From NCBI GenBank assembly GCA_035697515.1, contig DASSCS010000101.1:17540-81539 (forward strand): a DNA stretch of 64,000 nucleotides. The letters are read 5' to 3'. The position numbers were made by a program, and so were the translations under genes. Positions 13,280 through 49,980 of this stretch are shown here, piece after piece. This DNA comes from Acidimicrobiales bacterium. Its GTDB lineage: Bacteria; Actinomycetota; Acidimicrobiia; Acidimicrobiales; VFJN01. Positions within the stretch are counted from its first letter, which is position 1. Every line of letters begins with the position of its first letter. The notes below the pieces were generated by a model. The model did not search any database. It was not told the origin of the DNA and worked only from the letters and a program-made list of their open reading frames with translations.

Positions 13280-13283
13280 GAAC

Positions 13284-13296
13284 AGAATCATATTCT
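13284..13296. promoter_or_regulatory. perfect palindrome AGAATCATATTCT in a 38-bp divergent intergenic region (candidate TetR operator overlapping both -10 boxes)
   Basis: Read directly from the sequence. TATGAT on the minus strand lies 7 nt from the TetR ATG, and TATTCT on the plus strand lies 21 nt from the ACAD ATG. Confidence 0.5.
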
Positions 13297-13317
13297 TCCC
13301 GGCCGGAGGGAGGCGCC

Positions 13318-20454: not shown

Positions 20455-20515
20455 GCGGCGTGGTCCTCCGGTGGGGTCGCATCGATGACAGCACTGATCT
20501 CCGCTGCCGAGAAGC

Positions 20516-21112: not shown

Positions 21113-21259
21113 CGAAGCGGCACTCTACCGGTCGCAGAACGCCGTTTCCCGCACAGCCGCCGACCGCCGCTGACGGCGATCTGCCGGACGGTGAGGAAGC
21201 CGGCGTCGGAGCAGAGCGGTGTCGATGATCGACGGCGACATGCGAGGATCGACCGCGAC

Positions 21260-21870: not shown

Positions 21871-21874
<4 letters not shown>
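21260..21874 (+). CDS. TetR family transcriptional regulator
   Basis: HTH segment AVTSRRVAARAGLKPQLVHYYFRTMDDLFLALV. Its TAG shares the tetranucleotide CTAG with the stop of the convergent ABC gene. Confidence 0.8.
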
Positions 21875-30846: not shown

Positions 30847-32304
30847 GTGACAGCAGGGGTGAGCTTCGCTCGCCGTGTCCGGCAGCTCGCTGACCGGTGT
30901 CCCGATGCGCCGGTGTACCACCACGTCGGCCCGGACGGCAGCGGGCCGGTGCTCACGTGGCGCGAGCTCGACCGCCGATCGAGCCAGCTCGCGGGCGCGC
31001 TGGCGACGCGCGGCCTCGGCGTCGGCGACCGGCTCGGGCTCGGGGTCCGCAACTCGCCTCAGCTCGTGGTGAGCGCCCTCGCGGCCTGGAAGCTGGGCGC
31101 CGTGCCCGTGCCGGTGCGCTGGGACCTGCCCGACTGGGAGCTGGCCCGGGTCCGCGACGTGATCGCCGCGCGCGTCCACCTCGGACCCGAGGACGTCCCC
31201 TGGATCGACGCCACGGCTCAGCAGGACGTGCCCGATCTCCCCGACGCCGTCTCGCCGCAGGTCAACGGCATCTGCAGCAGCGGCTCGACCGGCACGCCGA
31301 AGGTGATCCTGAGCGAGCGGGCTGCCGTGTACGACCCGGCGCTCGGCACGCCGTTCATGGAGGCGTGGCGCCCCGTGACGCGCCCCCAGACGATCCTCGT
31401 GCCCGCCCCCATGTACCACGCCAACGGGTTCGCGACGCTCTTCAGCCTGATCGCGGGCGATCGCCTCGTGGTGTTGGGGCGCTTCGACGCCGCCCGCGCC
31501 GTCGACGCCATCGAGCGCCACCGGATCTCGACGTTCACCGCCACGCCGACGATGCTGCAGCGGATCGCCGACCTTCCCGGCATCGACGACCGCGACCTGT
31601 CCAGCGTCGACTGGATCCTCCAGGGGGCGGCGCCGATGCCGCCGTCGCTCGTGCACCGGTGGGCCGGCCTGATCGGCGCAGAGCGCATCGTCATGGTCTA
31701 CGGCATGACGGAGGGCCTGGGCTTCACCGCACTGCGCGGCGACGACTGGATGGGCCACCCGGGCAGCGTCGGTCGCGGGATCCGGGGCACCGAGGTCCGC
31801 ATCCTCGACCCCGACGGCCACGACCTGCCCGCCGGAGAGATCGGCGAGATCTACCTCCGCTCCCCCATGAGCGCCGGCTTCCGCTACCTCGGCGACGCCG
31901 CGCCCCGGGGCGGGACGGACGACGGCTTCTCGACGGTCGGCGACCTCGGCTATCTCGACACCGACGGCTACCTGTTCCTGGTCGACCGCCGGGTGGACCT
32001 GATCGTCACCGGCGGCGCCAACGTGTACCCCGCCGAGGTCGAGACCGCGCTCATCGACCACCCCGCGATCGCCGACATCGTGGTCGTCGGCCTGCGCGAC
32101 CCGGCGTGGGGCCGCCGCGTGCACGCCATCGTCGAGCCGGCCGACCCGGCCGCTCCGCCCGTGGACGGGGACGTCATCGCCTACGCCAAGAGCCGCCTCG
32201 CGGCCTACAAGGTGCCCAAGACGGTCGAGATCGTCGACGCCATCCCCCGCAGCGAGGCCACCAAGGTCAATCGCCGGGCCCTCGTCGAGGCCCGCGGCGG
32301 CTGA
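30847..32304 (+). CDS. AMP-dependent acyl-CoA synthetase/ligase
   Basis: SSGSTGTPKV (AMP motif), YGMTEG, GDLGYLDTDGYLFLVDR, and C-terminal KVPK. Confidence 0.9.
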   Translation: MTAGVSFARRVRQLADRCPDAPVYHHVGPDGSGPVLTWRELDRRSSQLAGALATRGLGVGDRLGLGVRNSPQLVVSALAAWKLGAVPVPVRWDLPDWELARVRDVIAARVHLGPEDVPWIDATAQQDVPDLPDAVSPQVNGICSSGSTGTPKVILSERAAVYDPALGTPFMEAWRPVTRPQTILVPAPMYHANGFATLFSLIAGDRLVVLGRFDAARAVDAIERHRISTFTATPTMLQRIADLPGIDDRDLSSVDWILQGAAPMPPSLVHRWAGLIGAERIVMVYGMTEGLGFTALRGDDWMGHPGSVGRGIRGTEVRILDPDGHDLPAGEIGEIYLRSPMSAGFRYLGDAAPRGGTDDGFSTVGDLGYLDTDGYLFLVDRRVDLIVTGGANVYPAEVETALIDHPAIADIVVVGLRDPAWGRRVHAIVEPADPAAPPVDGDVIAYAKSRLAAYKVPKTVEIVDAIPRSEATKVNRRALVEARGG

Positions 32305-32355
32305 CCACCCCCCGCACGTCCAGGCGACCCGGCCGGGCAGGAAGCCGTCTCCGCC

Positions 32356-32373
32356 GTCTAACATCTCGGTCAC
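32356..32373 (+). promoter_or_regulatory. 18-bp box GTCTAACATCTCGGTCAC, copy a
   Basis: Identical 18/18 to the copy at 39244-39261. It ends 23 nt upstream of the ATG at 32396 and is followed by GGAGGGGAGGAGGGG. Confidence 0.7.
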
Positions 32374-32395
32374 TTCGTCGGAGGGGAGGAGGGGC

Positions 32396-33382
32396 ATGAC
32401 CGAGACGGGTGCGTTCCTGGCGCTGCGCTACGACCTGCGGGCGCCCGCCTTCGGGCCGCCGGCCGAGGCCCTCTACCAGGCGGCCCTCGAGCAATGCGCC
32501 TGGGCCGAGGACCACGGCTTCCTCATGGCCACGCTGTCCGAGCACCACGGGTCCGACGACGGGTACTGCCCCTCCCCCCTCGTGATGGCCGCCGCCATCG
32601 CCGGCCGGACACGCACCCTGCGGATCCTGATCGCCGCACTCGTCCTGCCGCTGTACGACCCCATCCGCCTCGCCGAGGACCTCGCCGTGCTCGACCTCGC
32701 CAGCGGGGGCCGGATCGACCTCATCCTCGGCGCCGGCTACCGGCCGGAGGAGCTGGCGATGTTCGGCCGCGCGCTGGACGACCGCGTGCCGCTGCTCGAG
32801 GAGGGGATCGCCGTCCTCCGCTCGGCATGGACGGGCGAGGAGTTCGAGTACCGCGGCCGTCGTGTCCGGGTCACGCCCCGGCCGGCTCGGCCGGAGGGGC
32901 CGGGGCTCATCATGGGCGGCGCCACGCCGGCTGCCGCCCGGCGCGCGGCGCGGCTCGGCGCCGGGTTCCTGCCCGTCGACGCGTCGCTGTGGGCGCCCTA
33001 CGAGGAGGCCTGCCGCGCGCTGGGTCGCGAGGCCGGGCCGCCACCCCCCGTCGGCGGGCCCAAGTTCATCCACGTCGCCGACGACCCCGACGAGGCCTGG
33101 AGGAGGATCGCCCCCCACGCCCTGCACGAGACCAACTCGTACGGCGGCTGGCTGGCCAGCGCCGACGCCCTCGGGCCCTACGAGACCAGCGACGACGCCG
33201 ACGCGCTGCGGGCGAGGGGCGACTACCTGGTGCTGACCCCCGACGAGTGCGTGGAGAGGGTGCGCACCACCGGTTCGCTGCTGCTGCACCCGCTGATGGG
33301 CGGGCTCGATCCGGACCTGGCCTGGGAGAGCCTGGAGCTCGTCGCCTCGAAGGTGATCCCCCGCCTAGCGGAGCCTGCGTAG
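32396..33382 (+). CDS. luciferase-like (LLM class) flavin-dependent oxidoreductase
   Basis: 328 aa. AEDHGFLMATLSEHH and GGRIDLILGAGY. Confidence 0.85.
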   Translation: MTETGAFLALRYDLRAPAFGPPAEALYQAALEQCAWAEDHGFLMATLSEHHGSDDGYCPSPLVMAAAIAGRTRTLRILIAALVLPLYDPIRLAEDLAVLDLASGGRIDLILGAGYRPEELAMFGRALDDRVPLLEEGIAVLRSAWTGEEFEYRGRRVRVTPRPARPEGPGLIMGGATPAAARRAARLGAGFLPVDASLWAPYEEACRALGREAGPPPPVGGPKFIHVADDPDEAWRRIAPHALHETNSYGGWLASADALGPYETSDDADALRARGDYLVLTPDECVERVRTTGSLLLHPLMGGLDPDLAWESLELVASKVIPRLAEPA

Positions 33383-33449
33383 CCGCGGGTCGCGCCTGCG
33401 CTCCGGGGCGCGATGGGCCTCGCGCGAGCGGCGAGGCCGACGCAGGCTC
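33371..33449. terminator. nested GC-rich hairpin between convergent genes (candidate bidirectional terminator)
   Basis: Outer 9-bp stem GAGCCTGCG (33371-33379) pairs with CGCAGGCTC (33441-33449) and encloses both stop codons. Inner 8-bp stem GGCCTCGC (33416-33423) pairs with GCGAGGCC (33431-33438). Confidence 0.5.
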
Positions 33450-34725
33450 AGTTGCCCGGCACCGGCAGGTCGACCGACCGGGTGGCGTGCTGCCCGACCT
33501 TGTCGGCCTTCACCGAGCGGAGCGACACGTCGTGGCCGGCCGCCCGGGCCCGCAGCGCGCCGACGGTGCAGTTCTCGCGCCCGCCCTGGGTCGGGAAGGG
33601 GTCGTAGCTGAAGTGCTTCATGGCGTTGAGGTGCGTGACGCGATCGATGTCGTGGTCACTGACCCCGCCGAGGTTGGTGGCCAGCTCCTCGGGGGCGAAG
33701 GGCCACGTCGAGTCGGAGTGGGGATAGTCGCACTCCCACATCACGTTGTCCATGTTGAGGAAGTCCCGGCTGGCCATGCCGAACTTGTCGTCGATGAAGC
33801 AGGTCAGCACCCGCTCGCTGAAGACCTCGCTCGGCAGCTTGTCGCCGAAGTCCTGCCCCGTCCACGCGTGGTGGCGCCGGTAGTTGTAGTCGACCCGCTC
33901 GAGGAAGTACGGGATCCAGCCGATCCCGCCCTCGGACAGGGCGATCTTCAGGTCGGGGAACCCCCGCAGCACGGGCGACCAGATCAGGTCGGCGGCCGCC
34001 TGCACGATGTTGATCGGGGTGAGCGTGATCAGGCAGTCGATCGGCGCGTCGGGGGCGGTGATGACGAGCTGCGACGACGACCCGATGTGCAGGCAGACGA
34101 CGACGCCCTCGTCGGAGCAGGCCTGCCAGAACGGGTTCCAGTGGTCGGAGTGGAAGCTCGGCCAGCCGAGCTTCGACGGGTTCTCCGAGAAGGTCACCGC
34201 GTGCGCCCCCATGCGGGCGGTGCGGCGCACCTCGCCGGCGAGCGTCTCGGGGTCCCAGATCGCCGGGAGCGAGCACGGGATGAAGCGACCGGGGTGCGTG
34301 CCGCACCAGTCCTCGATGTGCCAGTCGTTGTAGGCCCGCACCATGGCGAGCGCGACGTCCTTGTCGTCGGTGCGCGCGAACAGCTGGCCGCAGAACTGCG
34401 GGAACGACGGGAAGCAGAGCGAGCCGAGGACGCCGTTGGCGTCCATGTCCTTCACCCGCTCGTCGATGTCGTAGCAGCCGGCGCGCAGCTCGGCGAAGGA
34501 TGTCGGCTCCATGCCGTACTCCTCCGGCGGGCGGCCGGCCACGGCGTTGAGCGCGACGTTGGCGATCTCCTGGCCCTCGTACGCCCAGGCGTTCGTGCCG
34601 TCGTCGCGGGTCACGAACCTGGGGGCGAGGTCGGCGTACTTCGCGGGCAGCCGCCCGTCGAACAGGTGCGGCGGCTCGACCACGTGGTCGTCGACACTGA
34701 CCAGCACCATCTCGTTGATGTCCAT
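33448..34725 (-). CDS. amidohydrolase-2 (ACMSD-like metal-dependent hydrolase/decarboxylase) family protein
   Basis: 425 aa. VSVDDHVVEPP, LHIGSS, WECDYPHSDSTWP. Confidence 0.85.
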   Translation of the reverse strand: MDINEMVLVSVDDHVVEPPHLFDGRLPAKYADLAPRFVTRDDGTNAWAYEGQEIANVALNAVAGRPPEEYGMEPTSFAELRAGCYDIDERVKDMDANGVLGSLCFPSFPQFCGQLFARTDDKDVALAMVRAYNDWHIEDWCGTHPGRFIPCSLPAIWDPETLAGEVRRTARMGAHAVTFSENPSKLGWPSFHSDHWNPFWQACSDEGVVVCLHIGSSSQLVITAPDAPIDCLITLTPINIVQAAADLIWSPVLRGFPDLKIALSEGGIGWIPYFLERVDYNYRRHHAWTGQDFGDKLPSEVFSERVLTCFIDDKFGMASRDFLNMDNVMWECDYPHSDSTWPFAPEELATNLGGVSDHDIDRVTHLNAMKHFSYDPFPTQGGRENCTVGALRARAAGHDVSLRSVKADKVGQHATRSVDLPVPGN

Positions 34726-34754
34726 CGCCGACCCCCTCGGTTGACCTCGCTCGG

Positions 34755-34772
34755 AACTAACATCTGGGTCGC
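34755..34772 (+). promoter_or_regulatory. 18-bp box, degenerate copy d (AACTAACATCTGGGTCGC, 14/18)
   Basis: It lies in the 96-bp gap between two minus-strand genes. It is therefore inverted relative to the amidohydrolase start at 34725. Confidence 0.4.
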
Positions 34773-34821
34773 GACGGTAGCACGACGCGGCGCTCGACGG
34801 TCCGGGTTGCCGTCGGAGTGG

Positions 34822-36306
34822 TCAGCCCGTGGCCAGGAGGTCGGCCTGCACGACCCGGCGCAGAAGCTTGCCGGTCTCGGTATAGGGCAACGTCTCGACG
34901 AAGCTGACGATCTCGGGCGACTTCGAGCCCCGGAGCGACCGGCGGGCGAAGGCCTGCACGTCGTCGGCCTCGACGGTGGCGCCGGGCCGGGGCACCACCA
35001 CGGCGGCGATGCGCTGGCCCCACTCGTCGTCGGGGACACCGACGACGGCGCACTGCGCGATGTCGGGGTGCTGCAACAGCACCTCCTCGATCTCGGCCGG
35101 GGCGATGTTCTCGCCGCCGCGGATGATCGTGTCGTCGCTGCGGCCCTCGATGAACAGGTACCCGTCGTCGTCGAGCCGGCCGCGATCCCGCGTCGGGAAC
35201 CACCCCCCGACGTCGAGCGGCGCGCCCCCGCCCGCGTACTCGCCCGACACCTGCTCGCCGCGCACCCAGATCTCGCCGGGCTCGCCGGCGGGGAGCGGCT
35301 CGCCGAGCGGTCCGCGGACCTCCACCTCGACGGTGGGCAGCACACGTCCCGCCGAGGACAGGCGGGCGGTCGCCGCGGGATCGCCGTCCCGGGCGGCCCG
35401 GTGATCGTCGGGGCCCAACACCGCGATCGTCGAGCTGGTCTCGGTCAGCCCGTAGGCGTTGGTGAGGTCGACGTCGGGCAGCAGCGTCATCACCCGCTGC
35501 ACCACGGTGGCCGGCGTGCGCGCGCCGCCGTAGGACAGCGCCCGCAGGGAGGGCAGGCCACCGCCGTCGGCATCGAGCACGTCGCAGATGCGCGCCAGCA
35601 TCGTGGGCACCACCATCGCGTTGGTGACCCGCTCCCGCCGCACCGCCTCGACCCAGGCGGTGGCGTCGAACTGGGCGAGGTAGACGATCCGGCGGCCCAG
35701 GTAGAGGTTGCTGAGCAGGTTCGCCAGCCCGGCCACGTGGTACGGCGGCACGCTCACCAGCACGGCCTCGTCGGGCCCGGCGGCCGCGAACTCGACGGTG
35801 CCGATCACGTACGACGTCAGGTGCCGGTGCCGCAGCACCGCAGCCTTGGGCGCCGACGTCGTGCCGCTGGTGTACAGCAGCACGGCCGGCCCGTCGCCAT
35901 CGGCGGGCACCTCACCCGCCGCGCCGCGAGCCCGCGCGGCGGCCACGAACTCCCCTGCGTCGAGCACCCGGTGGCCCCGGGCGACGAGCGCCGCCGCCAC
36001 GTCACCCTCGGCGACCACCAGGGTGTCGCCCAGCGGGGCGAGCAGGTCGTGGAGCTGGTCGTCGCTCAGGCGGTAGTTCAGCGGCACGAAGGGCATGCCC
36101 GCCGCGGCGGCGGCGAACAGCCCGATCGGGACGGCGAGGCCGTTGGTGCCCACGTAGGCCAGGGCCGAGGCGCCCACCGCCAGCTCGGCCGCGCGCCACG
36201 CGCTCGCGAGCAGCTCGCCGCCGGTGAGCCGGTCGTCGCCCGCCTGCACGGCGACCTCGTCACCGCGGCCCGCGGCGACCATGTCGAGCAGGAGGAGCAG
36301 GTTCAT
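34822..36306 (-). CDS. AMP-dependent acyl-CoA synthetase/ligase
   Basis: YTSGTTSAPKAA, YGLTETS, TRDRGRLDDDGYLFIEGR, and C-terminal TGKLLRR. Confidence 0.9.
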   Translation of the reverse strand: MNLLLLLDMVAAGRGDEVAVQAGDDRLTGGELLASAWRAAELAVGASALAYVGTNGLAVPIGLFAAAAAGMPFVPLNYRLSDDQLHDLLAPLGDTLVVAEGDVAAALVARGHRVLDAGEFVAAARARGAAGEVPADGDGPAVLLYTSGTTSAPKAAVLRHRHLTSYVIGTVEFAAAGPDEAVLVSVPPYHVAGLANLLSNLYLGRRIVYLAQFDATAWVEAVRRERVTNAMVVPTMLARICDVLDADGGGLPSLRALSYGGARTPATVVQRVMTLLPDVDLTNAYGLTETSSTIAVLGPDDHRAARDGDPAATARLSSAGRVLPTVEVEVRGPLGEPLPAGEPGEIWVRGEQVSGEYAGGGAPLDVGGWFPTRDRGRLDDDGYLFIEGRSDDTIIRGGENIAPAEIEEVLLQHPDIAQCAVVGVPDDEWGQRIAAVVVPRPGATVEADDVQAFARRSLRGSKSPEIVSFVETLPYTETGKLLRRVVQADLLATG

Positions 36307-36403
36307 GCCGGTGTCCGCCCCTGTGTGCAGAGACCGCCGGCCGGCTCGCTGGTCGCAAACGTACGCGCGGTGGGGTTCATGGATCCGCGATGTCTGTACT
36401 CGA

Positions 36404-36712
36404 TCAGTCGGACGAGGGCAGCGGCTTGGCGTCCTTGACGAGGAGCGGGCGGCCGTCGACCGTCAGCGCGCCCGTGCCGGCGCGGGTGCACAGCAACTCG
36501 AGGCCGAGGTCGTCGTCCGCGTAGCGCTTGCCGAGCAGCGGCCCGTCACCGAGCGACGGATCGAGCGTCGCGGCGCCGTCGGCGTCCTGCCCGTCGTCGA
36601 GCAGCGGCGCGCCGCCGCAGCCGAGCGACACGTCGGCGGACGGCGCCCTGACGACGACGACCTGCGCGTCGCACACCGCGCTGCGCAGCTTCTGACCCGG
36701 TCGTAGCTTCAT
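36404..36712 (-). CDS. hypothetical 102-aa protein
   Basis: ATG preceded by GAGGGGCAC. Protein-like composition (MKLRPGQKLRSAVCDAQVVVVRAPSADVSLGCGGAPLL...). No family recognised. Confidence 0.5.
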   Translation of the reverse strand: MKLRPGQKLRSAVCDAQVVVVRAPSADVSLGCGGAPLLDDGQDADGAATLDPSLGDGPLLGKRYADDDLGLELLCTRAGTGALTVDGRPLLVKDAKPLPSSD

Positions 36713-36802
36713 GTGCCCCTCGATGTCCGTCCCCGGGATGAACACGTGCGGTGGCGCCGTGACGTCTCCCGCTCAGGGATGCTAGCTGGTGCGATGCACC
36801 CG

Positions 36803-36820
36803 GTCTAACAGTAGGGTCAC
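36803..36820 (+). promoter_or_regulatory. 18-bp box, copy e (GTCTAACAGTAGGGTCAC, 14/18; all mismatches in the N5 spacer region)
   Basis: It ends 36 nt upstream of the ATG at 36856, in the divergent region between the 102-aa ORF and the hydratase/tandem-TetR pair. Confidence 0.6.
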
Positions 36821-36855
36821 GGTCGGACCTGCGGCGCCCGCATACGGAGGGGACC

Positions 36856-37764
36856 ATGCCCGAGTACAAGTTCGTGCTGTACGAGACGCTCGACGAGGGG
36901 CGGATCGCCCGCATCGTGTTGAACCGGCCCGAGGCCCGGAACGCCCAGAACCGCGGGATGCTCGTCGAGCTCGGCGACGCCTTCCTCCGCGCCGAGGCCG
37001 ACGACGAGGTGCGCGTCGTCATCCTCGCCGGCGCGGGGCCGATGTTCTCGTCCGGGCACGACATGGGATCGAAGGTCTCGCTCGAGGAGTACATGCCCGG
37101 GCCCGACCAGCACCCGACGCGAACGATCAACGGCGCCACCCGCGAGGGGGCCGAGAACCTGATGCTGCAGGAGTGGCACTACTTCTTCGAGAACACCCGC
37201 CGCTGGCGCAACCTCCGCAAGATCACGATCGGCCAAGCGCACGGCGACGTGTACGCCGCCGCGCTGATGCTGCTCTGGGCGTGTGATCTCATCGTCGCCG
37301 CCGACGACACCCGCTTCACCGACGTGGTGGGCACCCGGCTCGGGATGTGCGGTGTCGAGTACTTCGCCCACCCGTGGGAGTTCGGTCCCCGCAAGGCGAA
37401 GGAGCTGCTGCTGACCGGCGACTCGATCGACGCCGACGAGGCGCACGCCCTGGGCATGGTGAGCAAGATCTTCCCGGCCGACGGGCTCGGCGAGCACACC
37501 CTGCAGTTCGCCCGGCGGATCGCGCAGCTCCCCACGATGACGGCGCTGCTCATCAAGGAGGCGGTCAACCAGAGCGTCGACAACATGGGCTTCTACAACG
37601 CCCTCAACGCCTGCTTCACCCTGCACGAGCTGAACCACTCCCACTGGGCGCAGGTGAACGACGACGGCTACCCCGTGGCGAAGGAGGACTCGGGCATCCC
37701 CAACTGGAGGGAGGCTCCGCCCATCGTCCCCGCCGTCAAGGACAAGGTGCGCGCCGACCAGTAG
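36856..37764 (+). CDS. enoyl-CoA hydratase/isomerase (crotonase) family protein
   Basis: IARIVLNRPEARNAQN, VVILAGAGPMFSSGHDM, AAALMLLWACDLIVAADD. Confidence 0.9.
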   Translation: MPEYKFVLYETLDEGRIARIVLNRPEARNAQNRGMLVELGDAFLRAEADDEVRVVILAGAGPMFSSGHDMGSKVSLEEYMPGPDQHPTRTINGATREGAENLMLQEWHYFFENTRRWRNLRKITIGQAHGDVYAAALMLLWACDLIVAADDTRFTDVVGTRLGMCGVEYFAHPWEFGPRKAKELLLTGDSIDADEAHALGMVSKIFPADGLGEHTLQFARRIAQLPTMTALLIKEAVNQSVDNMGFYNALNACFTLHELNHSHWAQVNDDGYPVAKEDSGIPNWREAPPIVPAVKDKVRADQ

Positions 37765-37842
37765 CCCGCTTGCCGGGCCTGGTGGCGGCGGGTCGCACCG
37801 TCGCTGTTGGTACCTTGCCGGCCGACCTCCCCAAGGTGATGC

Positions 37843-39207
37843 ATGGCTCCTCTGCGAAGGGATCCCGAAGCTGCGCCGGCCGGCGCCGCCGTCGCCGACG
37901 ACCGGCGTGACGACGGCGAGTCCGACGCCGTGGTGCGCCGCGCCCCGTTCTCCGACAACCCCCGGGTCGGCGCCCGCGGGCAGCGGACGCAGCAGCGGAT
38001 CGTCGACGCCGCGCTGCGCGTCTTCGGCGAGGAGGGCTACCACCAGTGTGGTGTCGCCCGCATCACGCAGCTCGCCGGGTGCTCGCGGGCATCGTTCTAC
38101 CAGTACTTCTCCGGCAAGGAGGACGTGTTCCGCCATCTGGCGGGGCAGGTGGCGCGCCAGCTGAGCGCGTCGACCGAGGCGCTCGGCCTGGTCACGCCCG
38201 ACGCCGACGGCTGGCGGTCGACCCGGGCGTGGGTCGCCCGCTACGCCGACGTCTACGAGCGCTACGAGCCGGTCTTCCTCGTGTTCCAGACCGCGGCGGC
38301 GAGCGACGCGGCGGTCGCCGGCGGCTCGGCCCGCACGGGCGAGCGTCACGTCGCCTCCTTCCGGTCCCGGCTGACGGCGACGACCCTGCCCCCACGCCAG
38401 CTCGACCCGGTGATCACCCTCCTGCTCGGGTGCCTCCCCCGGACCCTCGACATCGCCGGCATCCTGCGGTCGGCCACGCCGTCCGCGTACCCGAGGGAGC
38501 GGATCGAGGACGCCCTCGCCGACGTCGTGCACCGCACGTTGTTCGGGCTCCAGGCCGTCAACGTGCACGCGCCCGCCCGGCGCCGGCCGCCGGTGCTCGA
38601 GTTCAGCCCCGCCGTGCAGGACGCCCTCGGCCACGACGGCACGGCGCGCCACCTGACCCCCGGTGGCAGGCGCACCCTGCAGGCCCTGATGGACGCAGGG
38701 CGCGAGCTGTTCGTTGCCCGGGGCTACCACGACACCCGCATCAACGACGTCGTCGCCGCCGCGGGCCTCTCCAAGGGGGCGTTCTACCGCTACTTCGAGA
38801 GCAAGGACCGCCTGGTCCAGGTCCTCGCCGTGCAGGCGATCCGCACCGTCTCGGCGACCCTGGCCGACATCCCTCCCGCCACTGCGCCCGACGGCGCGGC
38901 CCGCACGGCGGCCCTGCGCCGTTGGCTTCGGCGGTACAACGCCACGCAGGCCGGCGAGGCGGCGATGATCCGAGTCTGGGCCGACGCCGCGCTCGACGAC
39001 ACGGCGTTCAGATCCGATTCGGCCGCGGCTCTCGACTGGGGTCGGCGGCGGCTGGCGCACGTCCTGCGGCCACGGGGCTTCGGCGACGTCGACTCCGAGG
39101 CCGTCTTCGCCGTGGCCCTGCTCGGGACGTTCGGGGCCCGCGAGCGCCCCGCCGCCACGATCGACGCCGCCGCCCACATCATCGAGCGGGGGCTCCTCGG
39201 CCGTTGA
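37843..39207 (+). CDS. tandem (two-module, pseudodimeric) TetR family regulator, 454 aa
   Basis: Two complete TetR HTH segments in one ORF: RIVDAALRVFGEEGYHQCGVARITQLAGCSRASFYQYFSGKEDVF and LQALMDAGRELFVARGYHDTRINDVVAAAGLSKGAFYRYFESKDRLV. Each is followed by about 150 aa of helical ligand-domain-like sequence. The start codon is uncertain. Confidence 0.8.
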   Translation: MAPLRRDPEAAPAGAAVADDRRDDGESDAVVRRAPFSDNPRVGARGQRTQQRIVDAALRVFGEEGYHQCGVARITQLAGCSRASFYQYFSGKEDVFRHLAGQVARQLSASTEALGLVTPDADGWRSTRAWVARYADVYERYEPVFLVFQTAAASDAAVAGGSARTGERHVASFRSRLTATTLPPRQLDPVITLLLGCLPRTLDIAGILRSATPSAYPRERIEDALADVVHRTLFGLQAVNVHAPARRRPPVLEFSPAVQDALGHDGTARHLTPGGRRTLQALMDAGRELFVARGYHDTRINDVVAAAGLSKGAFYRYFESKDRLVQVLAVQAIRTVSATLADIPPATAPDGAARTAALRRWLRRYNATQAGEAAMIRVWADAALDDTAFRSDSAAALDWGRRRLAHVLRPRGFGDVDSEAVFAVALLGTFGARERPAATIDAAAHIIERGLLGR

Positions 39208-39243
39208 CCGGCGACGCGGTCGGTTCCGGCCACCGCGCATGTG

Positions 39244-39261
39244 GTCTAACATCTCGGTCAC
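39244..39261 (+). promoter_or_regulatory. 18-bp box GTCTAACATCTCGGTCAC, copy b
   Basis: It starts 37 nt after the tandem-TetR stop and ends 23 nt upstream of the GTG at 39284. It is followed by GAGGAGGGGGAG. Confidence 0.7.
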
Positions 39262-39283
39262 CTGGCGAGGAGGGGGAGACAAC

Positions 39284-40039
39284 GTGCGAACCGTGGTCGT
39301 GGGCGCGTCGAGCGGGCTCGGGCGCTGCATCGGGATCGGGCTGGCCCAGCGCGGCGCCCACGTGGCGCTGCTCGCGCGGCGACGCGGGCGGCTCGACGAC
39401 GCCGCCAAGGAGGCGGGCCCCGACACGCTGGTCGTCGAGTGCGACGTCACCGACGGAGACTCGTGCCGCACAGCGATCGACGAGGCCGCCGCCGGGCTCG
39501 GCGGCATCGACGCCCTTGTCTACGCCCCCGGGATCGGTCCCCTGGTCCGGCTGGTCGACACCGACGCGGAGACGTGGCGGCGCGTGTTCGACACGAACGT
39601 CACCGGCGCCGCGCTCACGACCGCGGCGGCCGTCCCGCACCTCACGGCGTCGTCCGGCGCCGCGGTCTACCTGTCGTCGGTCAGCGGGGCGCTCACGCCA
39701 CCCTGGCCCGGTCTGGGCGCCTACGCGGTCAGCAAGGCGGCGCTCGACAAGCTGGTCGACGCCTGGCGGGAGGAGCACCCCCACATCGGGTTCACCCGCG
39801 TCGTCGTCGGCGACTGCGCGGGCGGCGAGGGCGACTCGCGGACCCAGTTCAACGAGGGCTGGGACATGGCGCTGGCCACGGAGGTGGTCCCGATCTGGGT
39901 GGCGCGCAACTACCTGAGCGGCACGCTGATGGACGTCGAGCGCCTCGTGGCCGTCGTGGACACGTTGCTGCGGGAGGGCGCGACGCTGTCGGTCCCGTCC
40001 GTGACGCTCGCGCCGCGCCGGGCCGCCCCGCCGTCGTGA
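39284..40039 (+). CDS. short-chain dehydrogenase/reductase
   Basis: VVVGASSGLG and YAVSKAAL. The GTG start was chosen for Shine-Dalgarno spacing. Confidence 0.8.
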   Translation: MRTVVVGASSGLGRCIGIGLAQRGAHVALLARRRGRLDDAAKEAGPDTLVVECDVTDGDSCRTAIDEAAAGLGGIDALVYAPGIGPLVRLVDTDAETWRRVFDTNVTGAALTTAAAVPHLTASSGAAVYLSSVSGALTPPWPGLGAYAVSKAALDKLVDAWREEHPHIGFTRVVVGDCAGGEGDSRTQFNEGWDMALATEVVPIWVARNYLSGTLMDVERLVAVVDTLLREGATLSVPSVTLAPRRAAPPS

Positions 40040-41272: not shown

Positions 41273-42037
41273 TCATCGCGCCACCTCCAGCTCGCCGAGG
41301 TAGGCGCGTTCGAGCGTCCGGCTGTCGCTGCGCAGCTCGTCGGCGGTTCCCCGGAGCACGATGCTGCCGCGGTCGAGGACGGCCGCCTCGTCGGCCACGT
41401 CGAGCGCGAGCCTGACGTGCTGCTCGACGAGCACGACGGCGGCGCCGTGGTCGCGGGCGATCGTGCGCACGGTGTCGAAGAGCGTCTCGACGACGAGGGG
41501 GGCCAAGCCCATGCTCATCTCGTCGACGAGCAGCACCCGGGGCCGCTGGATCAGGGCCCGGGCCATGGCGAGCATCTGCTGCTCACCACCGGAGAGCGCA
41601 CCGGCCGCCAGGCCCCAGCGCTTGTCCAGCGCAGGGAAGATGTCGAGGAGGTCGCGCGGCGCGGGGCCGCCCCGGGACCTCGCGACCTCGAGGTTCTCCT
41701 CGACGGTCAGCGTCGCGAAGAGCGACCGGTCGTCGGGGACGAGCACCACGCCGGCGCGGCTGGCGGCGACGGCGTTCCCGCTGCGCAGCGTGACTCCGTC
41801 CACGGTCGCTCGTCCGGCACGCGCCGGGAGCAGCCCGGCCAGTGTGAGCAGCAGCGTCGACTTGCCGGCGCCGTTCGGGCCGAGCAGCGCGAGCACGGTG
41901 CCCGCGTGCACGTCGAGGTCCAGGTCGCGGAACACGACCGTGGCGCCGTGGCCCCCGCTGAGGCCTGCGCACTCGAGCCGGACGCTCGTCGCCTCGGTCG
42001 CGTCGGCTCCCGCCGCAGTCGCTCGACGCTCGTTCAT
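41273..42037 (-). CDS. branched-chain-amino-acid-type ABC transporter ATP-binding protein (LivF-like)
   Basis: The ATG overlaps the upstream stop (ATGA). Walker [10 protein letters not shown], signature LSGGEQQML. Confidence 0.9.
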
Positions 42038-44787
42038 GCCGTCGCCACCTCGCTCTCGTGCATCGTGCCGAGGTACGCCTCGGCGACCGCGCGGTCGGCC
42101 CGGATCGCGTCCGGCGGTCCCTCGGCGATGACCTCTCCGAAGTCGAGCACGTAGACGTGTTCGCACACGTTGAGCACGAGGTTGACGTCGTGGTCGACGA
42201 GGAGCATGGCGGCGCCCGCCGAGCGGATGGTGCGGATGCGCTCGCCGAGCCATGCGCTCTCGTCGCTGTCGAGCCCGGCGGCAGGTTCGTCGAGCAGCAG
42301 GACCGCAGGGTCCGCCACGCACGCACGGGCGATCGAGACGAGCTGGCGCTCACCCTGGCTCAGCGCACCCGCCGGGCGGTCGCGCAGCCCCGAGATGCCG
42401 ACGTTGTCGAGCGCCCGTGCCACCGCGGCGCGGCGGTCGGTGTGGCGGCGCCCCGACGCGGCAACGCTGACGTTCTCCTCGACCGAGAGGTCGCCGTAGA
42501 GCTCGAGCGACTGGAACGTGCGGGCGAGGCCGGCGCGCACGCGAGCGTGCGGGGCGAGCGTGTCGATGCGCCGTCCGCCGAGCTCGACTGACCCCCTGGC
42601 CTCGGCGAAGCCGCTGACGGCGTCGATGACGCTGGTCTTGCCAGCCCCGTTCGGTCCGATGAGCCCCACGATCGTGCCGCCGTCGATGCGGAGCGTCACG
42701 TCGTTGACGGCGACGACACCGCCGTAGCGCACCGTGAGGTGGTCGATCCGGAGGGCGGCGGCACCATCCACCGGCGCGACGGCCGCGGGCGCGGCGGCCG
42801 TGGGCGCGACGGCCGCGACCGCCCGGCGCTCGACGCCGGCACCGCCGGCGCTTCGGCTCGACCTCCAGCGTGCCCAGCGGTCCGCGAGCTGGTGGCCCGC
42901 AGCGGCGATGCCCTCGGGGTTGACGATGAGGGTCACGATGAGGAGGACGCCGGTGATGACCTGGAACCACTCGCCGAGGTCCACCCAGCGGTCGAGGGCG
43001 ATGAACATGATGCCGGTGGACGCGATGATGCCGGCGCTGATGCCGCCCCAGACCGACGTGATGCCGGCCAGGTAGGCGGTCGACAGCAGCGCGAGCCCGC
43101 CGATCGCGGTGAACGAGTCGAACGTGACGACCCCCCGGCGGTACGCCAGCAGGCCGCCCCCCAGCCCGGCGATGAACGAGGCGAGCGCGAAGCTGAGGAC
43201 CTTCACGCGCACGACGTTGACCCCGGCGGCTGCGGCCGAGCGCTCGTTGGCCCGGACGGCGAGCATGGCCGAGCCGAGCGTGCTCCGCCGCAGGGCGGCG
43301 ACGCCCAGGGCGACGGCCACGAGGGTGACGAGGCACACGAGGCCGAACTCGATCCTCGGGAACTCCTGGCCGGACCCGATGCCCAGGTCGATGCCGAACA
43401 TCGAGGGCGGGGTGACGCGGGCGCCCGAGCTCGGGACGATGTCGGAGTTGCGGAACCAGACCGCCTCGATGGCGTAGGCCAGCGCCAATGTCACCACGCC
43501 GAGCGTGAGGCCCCGCGTCCGCAGGGCCGGCAGGCCCACAACCACCCCGATGGCGGTGGAGACGAGCGCGGCCAGCAGGGGCGCGAACGGGAAGGGCACG
43601 CCCCAGTCCTCGGTGAGCATGCTGAGGGTGAACGCCGCGGTGCCGGCGAGGGCGAGCTGGGCCAGCGACACCTGGCCGGCGTAGCCCGTGACGACGACGA
43701 GCGAGAGCCCGATGACCGCGGCGATGAACGTGCTGATCACCGCGGCGCGCCACGTCCCCGCCGTGAGCGCCAAGGCCAGCAAGCCGACGACCGATCCGGC
43801 GATCATGGGGAGGAGGAGGGACCGCGGGCGGGGCGCGTAGCCCAGACGCTGCCGGGTGAGGCCGCCGCGCACGGGCATCCCGCCGCCGACGAGCACCAGC
43901 GCGACGAGGATGACGATCAGCGGCACGAGCTCGGCCGCCCCGGTCTGGGGCATCCACGAGACGTCCGACGCCAGCGACAGCGCCTCGGCCTGCAGCATCC
44001 CGATGGCGATGCCGGCGGCCACGATCGTCACGATGCTCTGGAACCGTCCCACGACGGCGGCGGCGAGCGCCGGGACGACGAACAGGGTGTAGGTCACGGG
44101 CGTGAGCGGGTTCACGGGGGCGATGAGGATGCCGGCGATGCCGGCGACCATCGCGCTGATCATCCAGTTGACGAGGGCGATGCGGTCGGGCGAGACGCCG
44201 CTGACGAAGGCGCCCGTCTGCGACTCCGCCGTCGCCCGCGTCAGCAGCCCGAAGCGCGTGTACCGGAAGCCGGCCGAGAGCACGACCGCGAGGACGACGA
44301 CGGTGAGCGCGAGGTAGAACCGGTCGGACAGCACGATCACCTCGCCCAGCTCCCAGCGGTCGACCGGGAAGATCGGCCGGACGCTCACGGTGTTGGTGCC
44401 CTGGCGGATCGCCAGCACGCCCTGGATCACCACGAGGACGCCGAGCGACGCGACCGCCCGGGCCAGCGGGGGCGCAGCGCGGAGCGGCCGGAACACCAGC
44501 AGGTAGAGCAGCGCGCCCAGCACGGCCGCGATGACCAGCGAGAGCGCGACGGCCGGAGCGAAGGCGAGCTCCCGGCCGAGGTCGACGGTCTTCGGGAGCC
44601 CCGGGACCGGAACGAGCAGCTCGCCGCGGCGCAGGCCCGCGTAGGTGTACGCCACGTACAGAGCCAGCGCGCCCGTCGCGAAGTTCACGACGCCCGAGGC
44701 GCGGTAGGTGATCACGAGGGCGAGCGCGAGGGCGGCGAACACGCCCCCGCTGCCGAGGCCGAGCAAGAGGGAAGCGACGTGGTCCAC
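42034..44787 (-). CDS. fused LivH-like permease / LivM-like permease / LivG-like ATPase (917 aa)
   Basis: One uninterrupted ORF. LivH-like region with FRPLRAAPPLARAV, LivM-like region with VTGYAGQVSLAQLALAG, then GPNGAGKTS...LSQGERQL. Confidence 0.85.
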   Translation of the reverse strand: MDHVASLLLGLGSGGVFAALALALVITYRASGVVNFATGALALYVAYTYAGLRRGELLVPVPGLPKTVDLGRELAFAPAVALSLVIAAVLGALLYLLVFRPLRAAPPLARAVASLGVLVVIQGVLAIRQGTNTVSVRPIFPVDRWELGEVIVLSDRFYLALTVVVLAVVLSAGFRYTRFGLLTRATAESQTGAFVSGVSPDRIALVNWMISAMVAGIAGILIAPVNPLTPVTYTLFVVPALAAAVVGRFQSIVTIVAAGIAIGMLQAEALSLASDVSWMPQTGAAELVPLIVILVALVLVGGGMPVRGGLTRQRLGYAPRPRSLLLPMIAGSVVGLLALALTAGTWRAAVISTFIAAVIGLSLVVVTGYAGQVSLAQLALAGTAAFTLSMLTEDWGVPFPFAPLLAALVSTAIGVVVGLPALRTRGLTLGVVTLALAYAIEAVWFRNSDIVPSSGARVTPPSMFGIDLGIGSGQEFPRIEFGLVCLVTLVAVALGVAALRRSTLGSAMLAVRANERSAAAAGVNVVRVKVLSFALASFIAGLGGGLLAYRRGVVTFDSFTAIGGLALLSTAYLAGITSVWGGISAGIIASTGIMFIALDRWVDLGEWFQVITGVLLIVTLIVNPEGIAAAGHQLADRWARWRSSRSAGGAGVERRAVAAVAPTAAAPAAVAPVDGAAALRIDHLTVRYGGVVAVNDVTLRIDGGTIVGLIGPNGAGKTSVIDAVSGFAEARGSVELGGRRIDTLAPHARVRAGLARTFQSLELYGDLSVEENVSVAASGRRHTDRRAAVARALDNVGISGLRDRPAGALSQGERQLVSIARACVADPAVLLLDEPAAGLDSDESAWLGERIRTIRSAGAAMLLVDHDVNLVLNVCEHVYVLDFGEVIAEGPPDAIRADRAVAEAYLGTMHESEVATA

Positions 44788-47420: not shown

Positions 47421-48617
47421 TCAGGCCGTGGCCGGCACCGCGACCCGCATGAGTCGGGCGAGGTTCCCGCCCATGATGGCGGCGACGTCGTCGTCCGGGA
47501 GGCCGTCGGGCAGGTGGTCGACGTAGCTGCACGGCTCGGCCAGGCCCTCGGGGTGGGGGTAGTCGGAGCCGAACAGGAGGTGATCGGCGCCCATGACGTC
47601 GACGAGCTGCTCGATGTCGTCCTCGTGGAACGGGCTGACGTAGACGTTGCGCCTGAACGCGTCGACCGGGTCCTCGTCGAACGCCTGGGGCATCTTCCTG
47701 TGGACGTCCTCGAGGTGCTCGACGAACGGCGTCACCCAGTCGCCGCCGTTCTCGATCGACGCGACCCGCAGCTCGGGGAACCGCGTGAAGGCACCGTGGC
47801 AGACGAACGCGGCCATGCTGTCGTCAATGGGCCGCGAGGCCATGGTGAGCATGCGGAACGGGTCGGGCCGGAACGGCAGCATCTCCATCGGCCCCGTCCA
47901 GTCGCTCTGGTACCGCGAGTAGCCGCTGTCGGAGGCATGCATCGACACCAGCACGTCGTTGTCGACCACGGCCTGCCAGAACGGGTCGAACTCCTCGAAG
48001 CCGAACGAGCGGGAGCCCCCGTACGCCGGCACCGGCGCGGGCCGGACCAGCACCGTCCGCGCCCCGCGCTCGACCACCCACTCAAGCTCCTCGATGGCCT
48101 TCTCCACGATGGGCAGGCTGATGACCGGCGTGGCGAAGATGCGGTCCTCGTAGTCGAACGTCCACTCCTCGTACAGCCACTCGTTGAGGGAGTGGATCAC
48201 CGCGTGGATCAACACCGGGTCGTCACGCATGCGCTCCTCGAGCAGGCTGGCCAGCGTGGGGAACATGAGTGCCCGGTCGACGCCGAGCTCGTCCATGAGC
48301 TCGAGGCGAGGTCCCGGCTCGCGGAACGCCGGGATGCTGCGCATCGGCTCGCCCACGAGCTCGCGGTACGACTTCCCCTCGGGGTTACCGCTGCGGAAGT
48401 ACTCCTCCTGCGCGCCCGGGCGGGCCACCACCTCGAACGTCGGGTTCGGGATGTACTCGCTGATCGTGCCGCGGACCACGATCTTCGTGCGCCCCCGGAC
48501 GTCGACGTAGTCGACCGCGCCCTTGTACCGGTCGGGCAGGTGGCGGGTGAACGCCTCCCTGGTCTCGTACAGGTGGTTGTCCGCATCGAAGACCGGGAAA
48601 CCGAGCCGTCTCGTCAT
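47421..48617 (-). CDS. amidohydrolase-2 family protein
   Basis: FPVFDADNHLYE, MHASDSG, FGSDYPHPEG. The start is ATG 48617 (preferred) or TTG 48653. Confidence 0.8.
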   Translation of the reverse strand: MTRRLGFPVFDADNHLYETREAFTRHLPDRYKGAVDYVDVRGRTKIVVRGTISEYIPNPTFEVVARPGAQEEYFRSGNPEGKSYRELVGEPMRSIPAFREPGPRLELMDELGVDRALMFPTLASLLEERMRDDPVLIHAVIHSLNEWLYEEWTFDYEDRIFATPVISLPIVEKAIEELEWVVERGARTVLVRPAPVPAYGGSRSFGFEEFDPFWQAVVDNDVLVSMHASDSGYSRYQSDWTGPMEMLPFRPDPFRMLTMASRPIDDSMAAFVCHGAFTRFPELRVASIENGGDWVTPFVEHLEDVHRKMPQAFDEDPVDAFRRNVYVSPFHEDDIEQLVDVMGADHLLFGSDYPHPEGLAEPCSYVDHLPDGLPDDDVAAIMGGNLARLMRVAVPATA

Positions 48618-48635: not shown

Positions 48636-48653
48636 TTCTAACGGTTGGGTCAA
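48636..48653 (+). promoter_or_regulatory. 18-bp box, weak copy f (TTCTAACGGTTGGGTCAA, 12/18; TCTAAC-N5-GGTCA retained)
   Basis: It lies 85 bp upstream of copy c in the same divergent intergenic region. Confidence 0.4.
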
Positions 48654-48720: not shown

Positions 48721-48738
48721 ACCTAACATCTCGGTCAT
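48721..48738 (+). promoter_or_regulatory. 18-bp box, copy c (ACCTAACATCTCGGTCAT, 15/18)
   Basis: It ends about 25 nt upstream of the ATG at 48763 and is followed by AAGGAGGGG. Confidence 0.65.
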
Positions 48739-48762: not shown

Positions 48763-49980
48763 ATGACCGCAGTCATGCAGGGCGTCCGCATCCTCGAGGT
48801 CGCCGAGCACACGTTCGTCCCTGCGGCATCGGCGCTCCTCGCCGACTGGGGCGCCGAGGTCGTCAAGGTCGAGCACGTCGAGCGGGGCGATGCCATGCGG
48901 GGCCTGGCGTCCAGCGGGCTCGCGATCATGGGCACCAGCGTCCACGTGCTGCTCGAGCACTCGAACCGGGGCAAGCAGAGCCTGGCGCTCGACCTCACGT
49001 CGGAGGAGGGCCTCGAGATCCTGTACCGGCTGGCGGCGACGTGCGACGTCTTCCTCACCAACAAGCTCCCGAGCGTCCGGTCGAAGCTCCGCATCGACGT
49101 CGACGACGTCCGGGCCCACAACCCGCGCATCATCTACGTCCGCGGCACTGGCCAGGGTGAGCGGGGCCCCGACGCCGACCGCGGGTCCTACGACTCGCTC
49201 GCCTACTGGTGCCGGGCGGGCATCGCCGCCGGCATGAAGCAGCCCGAGTACGACTACGTGCCTGCGCCACCGGCGCCGGCGTTCGGCGACTCGATCGGGG
49301 CGATGACGATCGCCGGCGGGATCATGGGGGCGCTGTTCCACCGCGAGCGCACCGGCGAGGCGACCACCGTGGACGTGTCGCTGCTCGGCATCGGCATGTG
49401 GTCGATGGGCGCCGCCCTGGCGCTGTCGCTCCAGCACGGCGTCGGGTGGACTCCCCCACCGCCGCACGCGCCCACCGGCAACCCGCTCAGCGCCATCTAC
49501 ACGACGAAGGACGGGAAGTACCTGGCGCTCACGTGCCTCCAGGCGGCGCGGTACTGGCCGGAGGTCTGCGCGGTGATCGAACGGCCCGAGCTGGCGACCG
49601 ACGAGCGCTTCGCCGACGCCGAGTCGATCAGGCAGAACGTCGCCGTCGCGGCCGACCTGCTCCGCGACGCCTTCGCCCAGCGTGAGGCGAGCGAGTGGCG
49701 CGAGCGGCTCGCCGGCTTCAGCGGCCAGTGGGCGATGGTGCAGGACACGCTCGAGGCGTCGACCGACCCGCAGACGGTCGCCAACGGCTACGTGCAGGAC
49801 TGCGAGACCGCGGAGGGCGTGGCGTTCCAGCTGGCCGCCGCCCCGGTCCAGTACGACGGGCAACCCGCGGCGCCCCGGCGGGCCCCGGCGTTCAACGAGC
49901 ACGGCGACGCCATCCTCGGCGACCTCGGCCTCGACTGGGACGCGATCGTGGACCTGAAGGTCCGCGGCGTGGTGGCCTGA
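48763..49980 (+). CDS. family III (CaiB/BaiF) CoA-transferase
   Basis: 405 aa. GVRILEVAEHTFVPAASALLADWGAEVVKVE and RGTGQGERGPDADRGSYD. Confidence 0.9.
   Translation: MTAVMQGVRILEVAEHTFVPAASALLADWGAEVVKVEHVERGDAMRGLASSGLAIMGTSVHVLLEHSNRGKQSLALDLTSEEGLEILYRLAATCDVFLTNKLPSVRSKLRIDVDDVRAHNPRIIYVRGTGQGERGPDADRGSYDSLAYWCRAGIAAGMKQPEYDYVPAPPAPAFGDSIGAMTIAGGIMGALFHRERTGEATTVDVSLLGIGMWSMGAALALSLQHGVGWTPPPPHAPTGNPLSAIYTTKDGKYLALTCLQAARYWPEVCAVIERPELATDERFADAESIRQNVAVAADLLRDAFAQREASEWRERLAGFSGQWAMVQDTLEASTDPQTVANGYVQDCETAEGVAFQLAAAPVQYDGQPAAPRRAPAFNEHGDAILGDLGLDWDAIVDLKVRGVVA

Follow-up and report, generated by a model that had tools for sequence, protein, structure and literature searches.

A double TetR regulator of Acidimicrobiia encoded as a single chain, and its predicted asymmetric 17-bp operator

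A 64,000-nt stretch of DNA from an Acidimicrobiales bacterium (GenBank assembly GCA_035697515.1, contig DASSCS010000101.1, positions 17,540 to 81,539; here called the window) contains, at positions 37843–39207 of the plus strand, a gene for a 454-aa protein that we designated dTetR. This protein is a genuine single-chain 'double TetR' regulator with the design of Mce3R (Rv1963c, PDB 9b7y) of M. tuberculosis, which is the prototype of a recognised subfamily. A non-palindromic 17-bp element, TCTAACA-N4-GGTCAC (the box), recurs in the intergenic regions around the gene. dTetR is probably an autoregulated repressor of the catabolic island in which it lies, and would read the box as an asymmetric operator. 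Double TetRs as a kind were already known. What is new is a compact and clearly defined asymmetric candidate operator, together with computational evidence that labour is divided between the first and the second helix-turn-helix (HTH) motif.

The start of the open reading frame (ORF) at an ATG was supported by the alignment of the orthologues, the consensus of which opens with MAP. The GC contents at the three codon positions (0.75, 0.55 and 0.94 at positions 1, 2 and 3) are typical for real genes of this window, which has 72% GC. A Pfam scan of the whole protein gave two TetR_N stretches (E 1.1e-31). When the two halves were scanned separately, both scored well above the TetR_N gathering cut-off of 24 bits. 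The first HTH, M1 (aa 53–98; 37999–38136, plus strand), gave 51.7 bits (E 7.5e-14), and the second, M2 (aa 282–326; 38686–38820, plus strand), gave 59.9 bits (E 2e-16). The initial annotation, made from the sequence without database searches, had expected two TetR_N domains from a profile search, and both were significant. It had placed the HTHs at aa 58–105 and 270–317; their number was correct, and their exact limits were a few residues off.

The helices of M1 lie at aa 71–78 and 82–88, and the latter is the recognition helix (SRASFYQ), which is nearly invariant family-wide. The recognition helix of M2 is at aa 311–317 (KGAFYRY) and includes R316, the codon of which is at 38788–38790. The two recognition helices are unlike each other (SRASFYQYF in M1 and SKGAFYRYF in M2). 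The M1 half and the M2 half shared 31% identity across 120 aa (E 1e-13). This indicated that the halves are homologous, yet the two HTHs differ.

A structural model of dTetR was built with AlphaFold2 from a 65-sequence alignment, and had a mean per-residue confidence (pLDDT) of 83.7 and a predicted template-modelling score (pTM) of 0.82. It has nine helices in aa 44–234, one short helix at aa 256–263 in the linker between the units (aa 235–272; 38545–38658, plus strand), and eight helices in aa 273–451. The helical region of ligand-domain size that had been noted after each HTH was thus seen in the model. Each half superposed on solved structures of TetR-family regulators (TFRs), including EthR, FadR, FasR and similar proteins, and the predicted all-helical fold with a ligand-type domain after each HTH is that of the TetR family. 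At the N terminus there is a basic arm (aa 30–43, VVRRAPFSDNPRVG; 37930–37971, plus strand) with the invariant columns R32, R33, P35, F36, N39, P40, V42 and G43. Residues 1–41 were disordered in the model (pLDDT below 50) although they hold invariant residues. By analogy with R9–R15 of Mce3R, the arm may contact DNA.

The fused protein was found full-length, at 65–99% identity, in more than 120 protein clusters, and all clusters that bear an organism name are from metagenome-assembled genomes (MAGs) of Acidimicrobiales. An exhaustive search of cluster representatives gave 165 clusters (at 50% identity) with E < 1e-30; they are mostly of 420–460 aa and colinear with dTetR. A genome scan with dTetR retrieved 80 loci from independent assemblies, nearly all labelled Acidimicrobiia or just Actinomycetota. 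Megabase-long contigs and the finished Aquihabitans sp. McL0605 chromosome are among these loci, and more than one dTetR paralogue is present in several of the genomes. dTetR therefore belongs to the double-TFR subfamily, with two complete, non-identical units that are conserved as a fusion. The initial annotation had raised the possibility that the ORF was two adjacent TetR genes joined by an assembly error. A join through assembly or frameshift error is practically inconceivable with a colinear protein of about 450 aa recurring in this many clusters and loci from many assemblies, the megabase contigs and the Aquihabitans chromosome among them. This excluded an assembly artefact.

The extent of the box was defined by 76 distinct sites from the related loci, in which information was limited to 17 positions, T-CTAAC-A-nTnn-G-GTCAC. 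The asymmetry ascribed to the box in the initial annotation was borne out; the length given there was 18 bp. From the centre of one half-site block to that of the other, the distance is about 11 bp, or one helical turn, as would be expected for HTHs paired in a TetR-type dimer or pseudodimer.

The window holds six copies of the box, all on the plus strand. Box 1 (TCTAACATCTCGGTCAC, 32357–32373) ends 22 nt before the ATG of a luciferase-like monooxygenase (LLM) gene. Box 2 (ACTAACATCTGGGTCGC, 34756–34772) lies 30 nt upstream of the start of a minus-strand gene for a DitZ-like oxygenase, and is inverted relative to that gene. Box 3 (TCTAACAGTAGGGTCAC, 36804–36820) ends 35 nt before the ATG (36856) of an enoyl-CoA hydratase gene that precedes the regulator, and is the proposed autoregulatory operator. 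Box 4, with the same sequence as Box 1 (TCTAACATCTCGGTCAC, 39245–39261), begins 37 nt past the dTetR stop; from its end it is 22 nt to the GTG (39284) of a short-chain dehydrogenase/reductase (SDR) gene. Boxes 3 and 4 correspond to copies e and b of the initial annotation, and the positions given there, upstream of the hydratase gene and 37 nt after the regulator stop, were both correct. Box 5 (TCTAACGGTTGGGTCAA, 48637–48653) precedes a second oxygenase-like gene on the minus strand, and lies 19 nt upstream of its probable ATG (48617). Box 6 (CCTAACATCTCGGTCAT, 48722–48738) is 85 bp from Box 5, and ends 24 nt before the ATG of a CoA-transferase gene. The six boxes share one strand whichever way the preceded gene points; some of this bias reflects the conserved gene order.

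The core of the box, CTAAC-N5-GGTC, occurred in the window only in these six copies, compared with about 0.3 expected from base composition. All six are intergenic, though only 8.4% of the 20-kb cluster is intergenic, and all six are 19–35 nt before a start codon and just upstream of the ribosome-binding site. A search that allowed up to 3 mismatches gave 15 matches against 4.8 expected, and none of 100 shuffles reached 15. Across the 1.41 Mb of the 80 related loci, the core was found 79 times on the strand of the regulator and once on the other, with about 3.7 expected per strand. The spacer between CTAAC and GGTC was exactly 5 in 86 cases; each of the other spacers from 2 to 9 was represented by at most one case. 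Palindromes of the form CTAAC...GTTAG were absent from these loci.

Less directed scans added little. A general repeat finder, run on 30.5–51 kb, was dominated by GC-rich coding noise, and recovered neither the box nor an alternative operator. A k-mer count in the intergenic DNA returned solely words derived from the box and the ribosome-binding site. A terminator scan of 32250–39350 gave one terminator-like site, inside the hydratase gene, which is uninformative in DNA of 72% GC. Metagenome contigs were also scanned with TCTAACATYYSGGTCAC. The scan gave at least 120 matches; most of those listed were due to chance or fell in conserved coding sequences from unrelated taxa of lower GC, so the scan cannot establish the specificity of the box. 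Among the contigs listed, the 13 with GC of at least 0.72 are relevant, and 12 of these 13 carry dTetR immediately upstream of a site of the Box 4 type.

The exact 17-mer TCTAACATCTCGGTCAC was also present within two unrelated conserved sequences of other taxa, both probably coding. One is represented by L081, L086, L088, L095, L096 and about 15 more (GC 0.61–0.65), and the other by L082, L097, L111 and others (GC 0.40–0.47). A lone 17-bp match is thus not diagnostic beyond Acidimicrobiia.

The hydratase gene (36856–37764, plus strand; Pfam ECH_1; NCBIfam PRK08290, 394.8 bits) and the dTetR gene are probably co-transcribed, as suggested by the gap of only 78 nt, the absence of a terminator-like site in this gap, and the synteny. 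The 17-mer of Box 3, TCTAACAGTAGGGTCAC, was identical and at the same position upstream of this operon in orthologues down to 55% aa identity. In the loci that we called group B (68–70% identity), the hydratase gene is absent, and a box of this same type, GCTAACAGTAGAGTCGA, is found directly upstream of dTetR. This suggested that the box follows the regulator, not the hydratase. A second box in group B lies after the dTetR stop and before the SDR gene. Autoregulation, which had been suggested from the positions of the copies around the regulator gene, gained support from these two conserved sites as a prediction.

The other boxes are also conserved. Box 4 was kept in all close orthologues, and a box at the position of Box 2 was present in L002–L004, L007, L009, L010 and L058. 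A pair of the Box 5/6 type was found in L001 (15261 and 15346, 85 bp apart), L015 (13828 and 13903, 75 bp apart) and L017 (5884 and 5949). The divergent intergenic region between oxygenase and CoA-transferase genes has two boxes in the same orientation, 65–85 bp apart.

The spacer of the autoregulatory copy, AGTAG, is frozen in about 40 loci (55–91% identity); the spacers of the other copies vary. This spacer yields TAGGGT, TAGAGT or TAGTGT, which are −10-like hexamers, and Box 3 itself holds TAGGGT. The actinobacterial −10 pattern is TAnnnT. The TAGGGT of Box 3 may therefore be a −10 element, and an overlap between operator and −10 element would explain the frozen spacer.

Regulators of the window other than dTetR were also considered as binders of the box. 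None of them was syntenic with the boxes in the 80 loci: a large LAL-type (AAA-TPR-LuxR) regulator (54428–57031, minus strand) was found in none of them, and two single TetR genes in at most three. These candidates were rejected.

The two half-sites of the box behaved differently among the related loci. The left half, CTAAC, and the M1 helix, CSR[AVP][SA]FYQYF, were constant across all groups, including paralogues of 35% identity. The right half varied with residue 316 in the recognition helix of M2. With R at this position, the right half was GTCAC at 52 of 75 sites. With H, it was GTCGA or GTCAA at all 13 sites, and with Q it was GTCAG at all six. In a neighbour-joining tree, R316 was ancestral; H arose twice independently (in group B and in L073), and Q/E once. 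The locus L022 groups with the H-bearing clade yet has R316, with GTCAC and GTCAT at the ends of its sites. Within a single MAG, paralogues such as L023 (H) and L025 (R) use different right halves. These results are suggestive of M1 reading the left half and M2 reading the right half of the box. Together with the tracking of the promoter and the rigid spacing, this covariation gives comparative support to the link between regulator and box that the initial annotation had drawn by inference, and binding of the box by dTetR is predicted.

In L038–L060 (Acidimicrobiaceae), extra boxes were found on the minus strand at about 11420 and about 20000–20240, with a different right half (TCTAACATTGACGTCGA and TCTAACATCGCCGTCAG). 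These are presumably sites of another dTetR paralogue in the same genomes.

We propose the following mechanism. The two non-identical TetR units would pack within one polypeptide like the subunits of an ordinary TetR dimer, which would place the two HTHs about one helical turn apart on one 17-bp operator, T-CTAAC-A-N4-G-GTCAC. M1 (helix CSRxSFYQYF) would sit on the invariant left half, CTAACA, and M2 (helix S[KH]GAFY-R316-YF) on the variable right half, GGTCAC. Because the operators are 19–35 nt before the starts, the bound protein would cover the region of the −10 element and the transcription start, and so repress. At Box 3, before the hydratase–dTetR operon, this would result in negative autoregulation. 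The five other operators would serve the genes for the LLM monooxygenase, two DitZ/PtmU3-like oxygenases, the SDR and the CoA-transferase. The inducer may be an intermediate of the pathway, most likely a hydrophobic carboxylic acid or a CoA thioester, which would enter the ligand pocket and cause release from the DNA.

Several points weigh against this proposal. The regulator served as the bait for collecting the related loci, which biases the co-occurrence of box and regulator, and the boxes were sought in loci around dTetR genes. The covariation rests on about three independent substitutions of residue 316 and is not without exceptions: R316 goes with GTCAA and GTCAG sites in L017, and with GTCAG in the 35%-identity paralogues. 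With so few substitutions, the covariation is suggestive, not conclusive. The fit of the model to Mce3R was moderate (TM scores of 0.51–0.58, root-mean-square deviation of 10.6 Å), and neither half, scanned separately, matched any Pfam TetR_C family. A consensus scan for sigma-70-type promoters in 32250–39350 gave no promoter-like site, which is uninformative in DNA of 72% GC, and the predicted overlap of operator and promoter comes from the distances to the start codons. The ligand candidate is a guess from the gene context. Finally, some TetR-family proteins, such as FasR, are activators.

The bias in the collection of the loci is compatible with a box that serves a different transcription factor, with its gene elsewhere, or that is a shared core-promoter element, with dTetR recognising some other site. 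The −10-like TAGGGT in the autoregulatory copy, and TAACAT in the other copies, would also fit a promoter element. We consider this unlikely, since dTetR is the one regulator of the window that shows synteny with the boxes, and the right half-site changes with residue 316 of M2 in three independent lineages. Moreover, the blocks of the box are only 5 bp apart, unlike a −35/−10 pair, Box 2 is inverted relative to its own gene, and the intergenic regions share no further motif besides the ribosome-binding site. If dTetR does bind the box, it could still act as an activator or a dual regulator, and to this we give a similarly low probability. Activators are few among the TetR-family proteins; the first half of dTetR did score against the NCBIfam model of the activator FasR (E 7.8e-19), far under the cut-off of that model. 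On the other hand, protein bound 19–35 nt before the starts and immediately in front of the ribosome-binding sites would obstruct RNA polymerase rather than recruit it. Mce3R, the closest analogue, acts as a repressor (PMC11667970, PMC2277422), as do most of the TetR-family proteins that have been studied (PMC3511530).

The pairing of one M1 and one M2 on each box could also be mistaken. Two chains might swap domains to form symmetric M1–M1 and M2–M2 dimers, each with its own palindrome and ligand. This was formally open for double TetRs before the structure of Mce3R (PMC11667970, PMC3711444), and engineered tandem TetR fusions do retain two independent specificities (PMC3711444). Such an exchange is very unlikely for dTetR in view of the 86 asymmetric pairs of fixed spacing and the absence of any CTAAC...GTTAG palindrome in the loci. 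The fold of Mce3R seen by cryo-electron microscopy (cryo-EM) is intramolecular (PMC11667970), and the pTM of 0.82 predicts, with confidence, packing of the dTetR halves within one chain. It is just as hard to credit that the box acts in RNA, as an element of the 5′ untranslated region independent of the regulator. Four copies do lie 22–35 nt before plus-strand starts in the sense orientation, as such an element would. However, Box 2 is antisense to the gene that it precedes, as Box 5 probably is to its own, in an arrangement that is conserved, and the conserved inversion of Box 2 argues for action at the level of DNA. The 17-mer also has no internal complementarity, and a scan of the whole window gave no match to Rfam. 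A repressor that acts as one intramolecular unit on each box remains our preferred interpretation.

Mce3R had been named in the initial annotation as the only precedent for dTetR, and it was the sole full-length match to the model in the PDB (9b7y_A; E 1.1e-6, 427 aligned columns, TM 0.51/0.58). The remaining PDB matches listed had about 150–230 columns on one TetR chain of about 175–220 residues, that is, on half of dTetR. In a literature search, no characterised double TetR besides Mce3R was found, and a paper of 2013 counted 204 other putative repressors of Actinomycetes with a double TetR signature (PMC3711444). Like dTetR, Mce3R has two non-identical TetR units in one chain. Its cryo-EM structure, reported in 2024, showed an intramolecular asymmetric M1–M2 unit, with both HTHs, about 32 Å apart, on a 25-bp non-palindromic site (PMC11667970); we propose that dTetR likewise binds its operator with both HTHs. 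Mce3R regulates its own gene and also catabolic genes of the lipid/CoA type, with those for a hydratase, an LLM monooxygenase and an SDR among them (PMC11667970). Basic N-terminal residues are near the DNA in Mce3R, and dTetR has a basic arm. The mce3 operator consists of two sites with a gap of 53 bp, and Boxes 5 and 6 are 85 bp apart.

The two proteins also differ in several respects. dTetR has 18 helices in 454 aa, compared with 21 helices in 406 aa in Mce3R. The dTetR box is a compact 17 bp in GC-rich DNA, whereas the Mce3R sites are of 25 bp and AT-rich. By inspection, probes B and C of Mce3R (from the supplement of the paper) are AT-rich and have no CTAAC...GGTC element. The halves of dTetR are 31% identical, but those of Mce3R are only weakly homologous (PMC3711444).

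Sequence comparison did not tie dTetR to Mce3R. Identity in the structural alignment was 14%. A phmmer comparison gave E 4.5e-10, confined to the HTH segments and no better than for single-domain TetRs, and with the profile of the dTetR family Mce3R came fifth, after four sequences of single-domain TFRs. When the four HTHs were compared, there was no correspondence of M1 to M1 and M2 to M2. The gene content around dTetR had been called strikingly similar to the Mce3R regulon. The hydratase, the LLM monooxygenase and the SDR are indeed shared, but the box cluster contains no fadE or mce genes, there are no mce transporter genes near dTetR, and the likeness is a generic one. The sole acyl-CoA dehydrogenase gene found (13318–14619) is about 18 kb from the nearest box, and a Pfam scan of 36 ORFs of the window gave no Mce/MlaD domain. 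Neither an adjoining mce operon for lipid transport nor a fadE17/fadE18–echA13 regulon, as an Mce3R orthologue would have, was thus seen. dTetR as an orthologue of Mce3R was rejected on these grounds and for the unlike operators; the two share an architecture, not orthology.

With the classical homodimeric TFRs (TetR, QacR, and FadR/YsiA, SaFadR, KstR2 and Fad35R, which respond to acyl-CoA), dTetR shares the arrangement of a TetR_N HTH and, after it, a ligand domain made up of helices. FadR-type regulators (5gpa, 3whb and 1vi0) were among the best HTH matches. dTetR also resembles the classical TFRs in having its predicted operators at the promoters of adjacent catabolic genes, and release on ligand binding would be expected likewise. 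A classical protein has a chain of about 200 aa and binds palindromes as a symmetric dimer, whereas the 'dimer' of dTetR is covalent, and its box is asymmetric with a fixed polarity. Engineered tandem fusions (ScbR-TetR and related; PMC3711444) also have two TetR units per chain, but they keep two independent dimeric specificities, whereas dTetR appears to use one HTH per unit on a single composite site.

The predicted targets of the boxes belong to a catabolic island. The product of the Box 1 gene (32396–33382, plus strand) is an LLM monooxygenase (Pfam Bac_luciferase, E 4.5e-52). The minus-strand gene behind Box 2 (33448–34725) encodes an Amidohydro_2 protein that matched DitZ (PDB 8uyr, E 1.8e-105), a diiron diterpenoid hydroxylase, and PtmU3 (E 2.2e-43), and has the motifs DxH and DYPHSD. 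A second Amidohydro_2 protein is encoded behind Box 5 (47421–48617, minus strand). It matched PDB 4dzi (E 2.5e-87), PtmU3 (E 2.3e-19) and also DitZ, and has the motifs DNH and DYPHPE; its PDB alignment begins at aa 15, and the ATG at 48617 is its probable start. The motifs D-x-H and D-x-P-H-x-D/E define the amidohydrolase-related dinuclear oxygenases (AROs), and are reportedly absent from the characterised hydrolases and decarboxylases (PMC13154177). From these matches and motifs, the two Amidohydro_2 proteins are probably AROs, not hydrolases. Genes for homologous oxygenases flank the majority of the dTetR paralogues across the 80 loci.

Box 4 precedes the SDR gene (39284–40039, plus strand; Pfam adh_short). 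The longest ORF of this gene begins at an ATG at 39239 and would overlap the box. The start was reassigned to the GTG at 39284, based on the ribosome-binding site before it (GGAGGGGGAG) and the conserved N-terminus (MRTVVVGASSGLG). The target of Box 6 (48763–49980, plus strand) is a family III CoA-transferase gene (Pfam CoA_transf_3, E 1.9e-84). Pfam and NCBIfam assigned to this region two acyl-CoA ligases, two enoyl-CoA hydratases, two SDRs, a TesB-like thioesterase and a Liv-type importer of the ATP-binding cassette (ABC) class.

Other features of the island and the window were noted. A small conserved ORF (36404–36745, minus strand) has its probable start at M12 (36712) and a length of about 102–113 aa, and gave no match in Pfam or NCBIfam. 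In related loci it adjoins the second acyl-CoA ligase gene, and it is divergent from the hydratase–regulator operon where the two are adjacent. At 42034–44787 (minus strand) there is a gene for a 917-aa fusion of two Liv-type permease domains (BPD_transp_2) and an ABC ATPase; its neighbours are genes for a separate ATPase and for a binding protein of the Peripla_BP_6 family. Elsewhere in the window, single-domain TetR genes lie at 12623–13378 (minus strand) and 21191–21874 (plus strand), one of them beside the acyl-CoA dehydrogenase gene, which is on the plus strand. A gene for the alpha subunit of a Rieske ring-hydroxylating oxygenase lies at 19162–20550 (minus strand). These genes, like that of the LAL-type regulator, have no box.

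To our knowledge, Mce3R is the only double TetR that has been studied, and its operator is long and poorly defined. The dTetR family offers a cleaner system, with a predicted 17-bp operator in many natural variants, a predicted assignment of the HTHs to the half-sites, and residue 316 as a candidate for specificity. It could be used to learn how single-chain pseudodimers read asymmetric DNA, and for orthogonal TetR switches of defined orientation. As a tentative idea that we would not yet favour, M1 may serve in the double TetRs of Acidimicrobiia as a fixed anchor on CTAACA, and M2 as an evolvable module that is retuned by single changes at residue 316. Paralogues that lie beside their own ARO clusters would thereby be insulated from one another. 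The identity of 31% between the halves makes an origin by internal duplication possible, and the family perhaps arose in this way, independently of the Mce3R fusion. For the uncultured Acidimicrobiia, dTetR and its box provide a regulatory handle on gene islands of this type. The island described here most likely breaks down a hydrophobic ('oily') carboxylic acid. The DitZ/PtmU3-like di-metal oxygenases encoded in such islands point to carboxylic acids of a terpenoid-like or resin-acid-like kind as what they may degrade.

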